Shown: positions 47,201 to 48,800 of the stretch, piece by piece
Numbering within the stretch: position 1 is the first letter of the stretch
How the letters are laid out: each line of letters starts with the position of its first letter
IMG/VR virus record: IMGVR_UViG_3300045256_000127
Source: a virus
Lineage: Duplodnaviria > Heunggongvirae > Uroviricota > Caudoviricetes
Strand: one strand, 5' to 3'
Length of the DNA stretch: 48,800 nucleotides
Program-made: the position numbers and the translations under genes
Notes under the pieces: generated by a model
Databases searched by the model: none
Told to the model about the DNA's origin: nothing
What the model saw: the letters and a program-made list of their open reading frames with translations, nothing else

Positions 47201-47404
47201 ATGGCCGAGTGCGTTTGGGAGGCGTTGAACCTGGGTCGTCGGATGGGCCGTTACACCGAACCGCCGTACTATCTAAGCGATTGCCCCTTCCAACCAGGGA
47301 GTGAACTTGCGTTCGCCTGGAGGAAGGGGTTTCTCAATCCCAACTCTAAAAACCCTCGCCCCGTGTTCCCCGAACGGGTGAACTGGCGGCGTGACGGGTT
47401 TTAA
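47201..47404 (+). CDS. small protein with Rmf-like CPF...AWxxG motif
   Basis: [17 protein letters not shown]. Confidence 0.45.
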
Positions 47405-48448
47405 TCGAGGTTGACTACTTCGCCGCCGTCACGGGTTCCCAGAGCAAACGCCGTGCGAAGGTCAATCGTGTCCCGCACGAACCGGACACTGCCGTCTGCC
47501 ATCACGGCGTTCGCACCGCCCGAGTGGAAGCTAAACCACTCGTTGTTCGGCCCGCAGTCGTGATTCGTCCACGGGCAGGTTGACGGCCCGCCAGTCGGCG
47601 TCTTGTTGTTGTTCACACCCTTCGATGCACCGGATGCCATGTCCGGCTCGGCCCACCGCCAGAACCGCCGTCCCTGGTTGTCTACCGGGTCCAGGTAGCC
47701 ATTCGCTGCCGCCCCGACCACCGCCGGGTCCATTGCCTCGGTCCGTCCGGCGTCTTCGTAAACCAAGATCGAGTTGCTGGTGCCGTCTGTGATCGCACCG
47801 ATGGTCGCCCCGCCGCCGAACACGTCAATGTTCGTCAACTGACTCGACGGCTTCAGTTGAATCGTCCGGGTCACGCCGGTGCCGGGGCTGCCGTAGTTCT
47901 GGTAGTAGTTGGTCGGGTAAGGCGATCCCGATGCAGCGGAGTTATACCGATTCGCCACGAGGCCCGTGGTGGCGGCGTCCGCCGGAGTAACGACCACATA
48001 CGGCAAGACGGCGTAGTCCGTGTAGCCGTAGCCCTGCGGGTCTTTATCGCCCTTCCGTTGTGGGTTGGTCGGGCACAGGTAAGTCTTTACCACTGCACCG
48101 CCCGCCCCGCCGTTCGCAGCGGTGGTGGCATTGGCACCTTCGTTGTACCGCACCTTCAGGTCAAACTGCTTGTACACGTTGTCCTGCTCGATGAACGGCA
48201 GAATCAGGGTGAACGCCGAGTGGAAGTCCTGGGTGGAAGTCAACGTGCCGCCGAAGGTAACGATGTGTTCCCCGGCTCTCGGGAACTTCCCGTAAGCGGA
48301 CTCGAAGTTATGGAACCCCAAAGCGATCTGCTTCAGGTTGTTTTGGCACTGACTCCGTGCCGCAGCTTCTCGGACTTTCTGGACTGCCGGTAACAGCAGT
48401 CCGATGAGAACGGCGATGATCGCAATGACCACCAGCAGTTCGATGAGG
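47401..48448 (-). pseudogene. DUF1559 (prepilin-type N-terminal, H-X9-DG) protein, 5' end cut off by the IS
   Basis: [34 protein letters not shown]...NNLKQ and [14 protein letters not shown]; in-frame TAG five codons before GFTL, no ATG. Confidence 0.8.
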
Positions 48449-48800
48449 GTGAAACCCTTCCCAGAAACCTACGGAAATCTGGGTTTGACGAAACCAACCC
48501 AACCTACTGCCGTTATACGCAGCGAGTCTTCAACGGGTTGATCCGTACTGGCCTTGCGGCAAGGCTCTTATCCAGTCGTCCGAGAAACTCAGAGTTCTGG
48601 ATTACTTTTCTGCCGATGTTGCAACTCCCGTTCACATCGGCATTCACTACACGACCGTCAGCAGAACGATACAAGCCACGCTTGACACGGCGACCACTGA
48701 ACTCATGACTCACGCCACGCTCGTACTTGGGAAGGGGATCACGGTCAAGGAAGCTGGCTTGACTGGTATACGCTTCCTCCGTGAACACAACCTCAAGTCC
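48449..48800 (-). mobile_element. IS200/IS605-family element right end (partial)
   Basis: tnpB 3' end, subterminal hairpin 48460-48483, inferred end TTCAC at 48453-48449. Confidence 0.7.
48513..48800 (-). CDS. tnpB: TnpB RNA-guided endonuclease, C-terminal fragment
   Basis: EEAYTSQASFLD and NADVNGSCNI (RuvC-II Glu and RuvC-III Asp). Confidence 0.88.
   Translation of the reverse strand, partial: GLEVVFTEEAYTSQASFLDRDPLPKYERGVSHEFSGRRVKRGLYRSADGRVVNADVNGSCNIGRKVIQNSEFLGRLDKSLAARPVRINPLKTRCV

Follow-up and report, generated by a model that had tools for sequence, protein, structure and literature searches.

The locus analyzed here raises the question of what a TnpB guide RNA would be directed against when the DNA encoding it spells the conserved N-terminal motif of a prepilin-type gene. 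The window, a stretch of 48,800 nucleotides of viral DNA (Caudoviricetes), ends with the 3' part of a minus-strand tnpB gene, whose element abuts a DUF1559 gene. A sequence-only reading of the window had proposed that the guide taken from this junction could be directed against a large gene family of a Planctomycete host. We consider it likely that the element is a non-autonomous IS607 TnpB element residing in a DUF1559 gene of the phage, with a guide that hits mainly its own vacant site.

Phage setting and identity of the element

The source contig of the window is at least 131 kb in length and carries 14 tRNA genes, along with genes for ribonucleotide reductase, an SbcCD-like nuclease, PhoH, dUTPase, endonuclease VII, CTP synthase, and DnaJ, and numerous small ORFs of unknown kind. 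It is a huge phage and not a Planctomycete chromosome, and the DUF1559 gene is therefore phage-borne; the host setting assumed for it earlier does not hold. The end of the window is also the end of the contig (131,290 minus 48,800, compared with the match offsets). The contig stops inside tnpB, so the left end of this IS copy was not recovered.

The DUF1559 gene occupies 47401–48453 on the minus strand, from a Phe codon to the TAA at 47403–47401. It has both the methylation motif (PF07963, N_methyl; E 2e-6) and the SBP_bac_10 domain (PF07596; E 9e-47) of DUF1559 prepilin-type proteins, and its leader peptide is missing in the contig. The IS join falls precisely at the bar in G|FTLIELLVV, with the Gly codon on one side and the Phe codon on the other. 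As had been noted from the sequence, the frame runs into a TAG five codons upstream (48471–48469) and has no start codon ahead of the GTG at 48432, which is the start chosen by the gene caller and lies inside the LLVV codons. A protein made from the occupied allele at this GTG would lose the leader and the Phe, normally the methylated mature N-terminus, and would keep the hydrophobic helix. The closest relatives of the DUF1559 protein are 53–67% identical and come from Planctomycetia and Gemmatales. No close orthologue was found, the next best being 67% identical, and there is therefore no database empty site. Neither a second DUF1559 motif nor a second guide match was found in the window.

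Relatives of the element were fetched with a 23-nt piece of the hairpin that follows the stop codon, which yielded 19 metagenome loci and two viral loci; protein look-ups supplied further, more distant copies. By sequence comparison, the element belongs to the IS607 family. Three relatives (L093, L094, and L095), whose TnpB C-termini are 76–79% identical, have a gene with MerR-HTH and Resolvase domains, a serine-recombinase TnpA, just upstream. The closest copies (L001, L014, L016, L018, L026, and L027) are TnpB-only elements of about 1.4 kb. A search for tnpA across the window found none, as in the closest TnpB-only copies such as L001. We read the window copy as the right third of an IS607-family element that is non-autonomous, a TnpB element of a known kind seemingly carried by a phage. 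A G-rich core occurs on the left (..AAG-GG-T, 10 of 10), on the right (..AAC-GG-T, 23 sites), and in the probable native allele described below (AAG-GG-T); on the left it is that of relatives' junctions, the left junction of this copy lying outside the contigs. Membership of the IS200/IS605 group was considered and rejected, as the autonomous relatives carry a Resolvase gene and the left-flank motif is AGGGT and not TCAC; no Y1 gene was found beside the fetched relatives.

This IS lineage is seen mostly in phage-like contigs. Two of the copies are in IMG/VR loci (L026 and L027), another adjoins a Gp23 capsid gene (L090), and that of L001 adjoins HNH and GIY-YIG genes. The left ends of the distant relatives L091 and L093–L095 could not be located by motif. 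Several relatives have departed from the simple arrangement. L007 (1016–1100, minus strand) encodes no protein: in this mini-element, the left end (..ACAGTTGAAGGAAAATCTGGGTAAATCTAGGG) runs immediately into the hairpin and terminus of the right end, and the whole has the look of a MITE-like derivative retaining only the final portion of the reRNA. In L021 (minus strand, about 3960–4040), an internal deletion has taken out the left end's 3' half, so that ..GGGTAAATC meets the tnpB start region without a gap. Between tnpA and tnpB, L095 has a DNA methylase gene (PF00145; 737–1492), and L093 (1163–1492) and L094 have a 109-amino acid ORF belonging to no family. These extra genes may be cargo.

Right end, predicted guide RNA, and putative nuclease

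The right end was compared at 23 distinct insertion sites of this IS family: conservation extends up to ...GGAACGGT, and the base that follows is variable (T at ten sites, A at five, and G and C at four each). Since the sites share this terminus and then diverge, the right end in the window is at 48454, with the flank, and hence the guide, starting from 48453. Logan contigs from other runs of the same sample cease matching at 48454/48452. By these comparisons the junction between IS and flank is 48454|48453. The sequence-only reading was correct that the TnpB element abuts the prepilin motif and that the predicted guide would be read from FTLIELL-coding DNA, and it had itself allowed that the junction might lie elsewhere. 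It does in part: the boundary drawn there, TTCAC|CCTC (48449/48448), is 5 nt too far downstream, such that TTCAC is part of the guide and not a TAM.

The right end is predicted to encode a structured ωRNA (reRNA) that overlaps the 3' end of tnpB and reads into the right flank. The scaffold, including the IS right end, occupies 48454–48640 on the minus strand, as drawn from a consensus fold and the 23 flanks; its 5' limit is approximate, and it ends with ...TTTCTGGGAA(C)GGT at 48454. Of the 50 pairs in a consensus fold of the right-end regions of 14 relatives, 14 show compensatory changes, and the single-sequence fold of the window region has a z of -4.3. Compensatory changes are also found in the stop-codon hairpin (CUGC/GCAG as compared with CAGC/GCUG and CAAC/GUUG). 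An Rfam search of the right-end RNA and of full relatives produced no family match. The predicted guide, TTCACCCTCATCGAACTGCT, is encoded by 48434–48453 (minus strand), beginning where the conserved right end gives way to variable sequence. It encodes F-T-L-I-E-L-L, and its first 16 nt finish at 48438; a guide of this length is what characterized TnpB systems would lead one to expect.

Two direct AG(A/G)TTTC repeats are found near the right end (48480–48461), and the left ends of relatives (e.g., L027, 610–640) have two inverted GAAATCT repeats. Both resemble the subterminal repeats known as binding sites of the IS607 transposase.

The visible part of tnpB consists of its last 95 codons (48516–48800, minus strand), in a frame that is open up to the end of the window. 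The stop codon (TAA, 48515–48513) is located in the loop of a conserved hairpin (48522–48507), in agreement with the stop and hairpin reported from the sequence. The 95-codon frame has a weak Pfam match (Cas12f1-like_TNB); compared with the C-terminal part of the 390-amino acid TnpB of L001, it is 87% identical. A second assembly of the locus (L028) extends the readable tnpB of this copy to 125 codons, which remain open and are 87–88% identical to intact relatives. Protein look-ups did not find a full-length TnpB 100% identical to this copy, the best being 88% identical. Similarity to solved or characterized proteins is low, with a best PDB match of E about 1e-3 to Cas12f.

The window frame includes an alternative RuvC-II Glu (TEEAYTSQ) and the RuvC-III Asp (NADVNGSCNIGRK; NADVNG in the family). 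The canonical RuvC-II Glu position reads GKND, and the zinc-finger cysteines are absent, with the CxxC...CxxC motif wholly missing. The conserved Glu precedes the site of the lost first zinc-finger Cys by six residues, and a Glu at this distance from the Cys is how the alternative Glu (Ealt) was defined by Yoon et al. (PMC10711439). In an alignment of 30 family members, D183 (VDIG), E303/E304 (TEEAYTS), and D350 (NADVNG) are invariant or nearly so. The RuvC-I Asp and the first two thirds of tnpB of this copy lie beyond all contigs, and the triad is known from the relatives. Judged from these sequences, the TnpB is an alternative-Glu, zinc-finger-less RuvC type whose D-E-D triad is conserved in the family. 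A TnpB lacking catalytic residues had been named beforehand as an outcome that would count against the proposal; the two that fall within the window, the Glu and the final Asp, are both intact.

These features bear on whether the copy is a decayed one that no longer makes TnpB or reRNA, its sole effect being the loss of the DUF1559 leader. The short readable frame (95 codons, or 125 in L028), the absence of tnpA from the window, and the existence of degenerate family members, namely L021 with its internal left-end deletion and L007 with only a left and a right end, would all fit such a remnant. However, the 125 visible codons are open and 87–88% identical to those of intact relatives, both visible catalytic residues are kept, and the reRNA region retains all conserved stems. 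We consider a dead remnant unlikely, and an intact copy of the element is predicted to produce an active nuclease.

Inferred target motif and a probable uninterrupted allele

Among independent copies of the element, AGGGT directly precedes the left end in 10 of 10 left flanks, and the base before it is A in nine of these; TCAC ends none of the 10. In all relatives and in L028, by contrast, the right end has ACGGT. The G of the left flanks as against the C of the right ends, at position -4, tells the target motif apart from the occupied site, and a single G/C position separating target from self is what avoidance of self-cutting requires. Recombination of IS607 elements takes place at GG cores, found in the target as well as at either end, and GGG serves as the TAM of the ISXfa1 TnpB (PMC10711439). 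The left flanks ((A)AGGGT) and the probable vacant allele described below (AAGGGT-TTCACC) make it likely that the TAM of this TnpB contains GGG, and we infer an (A)AGGGT type with a GGG core.

The sequence-only reading had the right end finish with ...GGTTTCAC, took TTCAC or TCAC as the TAM, and read the guide as CCTCATCGAACTGCTGGTGG, with all matching paralogues as targets. TTCAC does precede that guide, and TCAC-type TAMs are known in other TnpB lineages. Yet TTCAC is unconserved at the other 22 right-end junctions, where conservation stops at GGT, and the left flanks, as given above, are without TCAC throughout. The TAM of a TnpB belongs, moreover, to the left flank or target and not to the right end of an occupied site (PMC10711439). 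We consider the TTCAC reading extremely unlikely.

A single base near the junction proved informative. Position 48457 (minus strand) is G in the window, giving AAGGGT, whereas it is C (AACGGT) in L028 and in read contigs spanning the junction. L028 is otherwise identical to the window over 11.4 kb, and the G is unique to the window assembly. The K-G that appears to be intact before F-T-L-I-E is not host sequence, the GGT being the conserved IS terminus; it seems to restore the Gly codon because the G-rich core of IS607 elements ends up at both junctions. Self-targeting, with an AAGGGT right end serving as a TAM, was considered and dropped, as L028 and the read contigs show AACGGT. Position 48457 is located exactly at the core shared by IS and target, where single bases at repeat-mediated contig ends call for caution.

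The source sample is a metagenome from a hot spring or microbial mat, and Logan contigs from four of its runs were aligned to the region. The contig spanning the junction (from 48427/48431 to beyond 48800) has C at 48457. A further contig, 68 nt in length and with a depth of 10.2, comparable to the 10.9 of the phage gene body, matches 48415–48461 exactly, including GGAAGGGT (AAGGGT), and its 21 upstream bases differ from the IS end. The first k-mer of this contig is the one ending on base 48452, exactly where a shared leader would fork and proceed either to TTC... (vacant) or to the IS left end, which in most copies is T followed by G or T. The 68-nt contig is probably the uninterrupted allele, reading AAGGGT and then TTCACC, present in the source sample, and the window G at 48457 seems to be a mix of the two alleles. 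The orthologous empty site was not recovered as a long contig, and scans of viral contigs for an empty site of L027, for other right ends with AAGGGT, and for the native allele found nothing.

The join between IS and DUF1559 gene could also be an assembly chimera, in which the IS abuts a look-alike prepilin gene of another replicon, such as a paralogue of the Planctomycete host with the same first 27 nt or more following the Phe codon, and the phage gene is intact; the intact phage gene would then be a perfect TAM-plus-guide target of a host-borne IS. Several observations speak for this. The native-looking contig (depth 10.2) and the junction contig (4.7) together exceed the gene-body contig (10.9) in one run; the second run has 6.1 for the junction and 9.5 for the gene body. 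As the native and IS paths thus outnumber the gene body, the IS may sit in a look-alike paralogue on another replicon. Both contigs end inside the IS, and the window has the native base at 48457 within an otherwise IS-derived stretch. The motif is extremely repeated, with 48413–48457 drawing 100–200 paralogue contigs per run at a summed depth of 2000–4800, and the junction contig carries just 23–27 nt of flank. A chimeric join is possible since the join runs through a highly repeated motif of 27–40 nt. Against this, the same join occurs in two assemblies, the native allele of the phage has the AAGGGT target motif that is rare among paralogues, and the native 68-nt contig begins just where a shared leader would fork into the IS left end. 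The depths come from 38–450 k-mers at about 5–10x and are noisy. We regard a chimera as possible, though on balance doubtful.

Were the IS inserted in the phage gene, as we favor, its action would be as follows. The left junction would consist of the phage leader, AAGGGT, and the left end T/C-GGGG-ACAGTTGAAC... The reRNA scaffold would end at 48454 and read on into the flank, so that the guide would be TTCACCCTCATCGAAC(TGCT). A TnpB RNP cuts DNA that has the TAM directly 5' of the guide match. This combination would be found in the uninterrupted allele of the same gene, AAGGGT+TTCACC..., which with its target motif and perfect guide match is the predicted substrate of the RNP. The occupied site would be spared because its right end reads AACGGT. 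The outcome would be homing or retention of the IS within the phage population, in keeping with the cutting of vacant sites as the substrate for TnpB homing and retention (PMC10055086). No sweep through host DUF1559 paralogues would be expected, as these match the guide and almost never have the TAM.

Guide matches among Planctomycetota and likeness to known systems

The earlier proposal predicted guide matches in Planctomycete genomes, and these do exist. The 16-nt guide occurs exactly in 53 of 401 Planctomycetota genomes, usually at one to three sites, as compared with none for a reversed-pattern control, and 30 of 32 inspected sites are prepilin N-termini. The genome G334 contains 25 exact 20-mers, and its matches with two or fewer mismatches number 144. 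The bases preceding these matches are a different matter. The triplet before the Phe codon at 20 exact G334 matches is GCC (12), GGA (6), GGC (1), or GGT (1), and AGGGT precedes none of the 20. AAGGGT was found before one of 32 and none of 20 sampled paralogue matches, and GGT before six of 32 and one of 20. GGGT followed by a 12-nt seed occurs in 18 of the 401 genomes, at most once in each and nowhere in G334, which makes broad cutting of paralogues unlikely. Most of the paralogue contigs from the source sample cease to resemble the window precisely at 48453. The match of the guide to a large gene family is therefore borne out, while cutting of the family's members by this RNP is unlikely and would need a much looser TAM than the one proposed here.

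In the genome G334 (loci L070–L089), 25 prepilin-type genes have the identical stretch of 20 nt, usually extending to at least 30 nt, and most encode Ala and not Gly at -1 (R-A|F). Codon uniformity of this strength is unusual among paralogues; gene conversion could account for it, or it could be a mark of the host lineage of this phage.

A nuclease with such a relaxed TAM (GGT, GT, or less) could attack or silence host prepilin and DUF1559 genes or spread the IS to paralogues. The guide-only matches in G334, the 100–200 matching contigs in the source sample, and the GGT found before some matches would provide it with targets. On the other hand, the perfect G/C split at -4, between 10 left flanks and all right ends, points to a specific GGG-type TAM. 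The other 22 insertions sampled from the family all lie outside prepilin motifs, and no close TnpB relative was found in the 401 Planctomycetota genomes, six of which had hits, all at 47% identity or less. We hold an attack on host genes by a relaxed-TAM nuclease to be very improbable. Scarcely less improbable is the broader idea that the phage TnpB guide spells the most conserved DNA of the host's largest gene family, such that a looser TAM would expose many genes. If it were true, many prepilin and DUF1559 genes of an infected host could be cut, nicked, or blocked by the RNP, and the IS could also enter paralogues by cut-and-copy. The mirror case, a host-borne copy, would amount to accidental RNA-guided immunity against a phage with a stolen DUF1559 gene.

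The biology of the locus is mostly ordinary, that of an IS607-type TnpB element in a phage gene, with the prepilin-motif content of the guide an accident of the insertion site and the vacant allele of its own site the likeliest target. The analysis corrects a misreading: the right end is not where a TAM is read, and a guide that matches a gene family does no harm where the TAM is lacking. It also documents a TnpB lineage associated with phages that has an alternative Glu, no zinc finger, and a G-rich target motif, (A)AGGGT, of possible interest for mining compact nucleases with TAMs that are not T-rich. The source sample, which seemingly has both occupied and vacant alleles, would be a natural setting for TnpB homing in a phage population.

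Among characterized systems, the IS607 element ISXfa1 of Xylella fastidiosa (Yoon et al. 2023, NAR, PMC10711439) is like the autonomous relatives of this element in pairing TnpB with a MerR-HTH serine recombinase. It also has in common with the element family the G-rich core (GG) at both ends and an reRNA, here predicted, that starts within the 3' part of tnpB and continues into right-flank sequence; its GGG TAM resembles the (A)AGGGT motif. Unlike ISXfa1, this copy is TnpB-only, is carried by a phage, has lost the zinc-finger cysteines, and has a GGT terminus with an extra fixed T. The TnpB resembles the Ealt/D-phi-G clade, which is sister to the pro-Fanzor clade (PMC10711439), in having the Glu (TEEAYTSQ) moved to six residues before the first zinc-finger position and in the family's RuvC-I VDIG, which is D-phi-G and not DPG. 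It is not pro-Fanzor because it is without DPG. It departs from the Ealt clade in that the CxxC...CxxC motif is absent altogether.

The TnpB systems of Karvelis 2021 and Altae-Tran 2021 are reportedly of the IS200/IS605 group. Elements of this group, such as ISDra2 and the GstIS type, likewise take the guide from the right flank and the TAM from the left-flank target (Meers et al. 2023, preprint PMC10055086). The predicted logic is also alike, with the RNP cutting the vacant site and recombination restoring the element. In contrast, IS200/IS605 elements have a Y1 HUH transposase, single-strand hairpin ends, and TTGAT-, TTAC-, or TCAC-type motifs, whereas the relatives of this element have a serine recombinase and TCAC is absent from the left flank.

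IStrons, in which an IS607 or IS605 element is combined with a group I intron (CboIStron, 10.1101/2023.11.20.567912), are similar in that a TnpB element lies within coding sequence, where splicing could rescue the gene. The relatives of this element differ from these: an Rfam search of full L027 and L093 found no group I intron, and only about 115 nt separate the left end from the tnpB start. IStron identity was rejected on both counts. Finally, TldRs are nuclease-dead, TnpB-like repressors of phages. They too are phage-borne and have guides matching a bacterial surface-appendage gene. Here, unlike in TldRs, the D-E-D triad is conserved in the family and the guide is the flank of an insertion instead of a dedicated promoter-matching guide, and the conserved triad argues against a nuclease-dead TldR.
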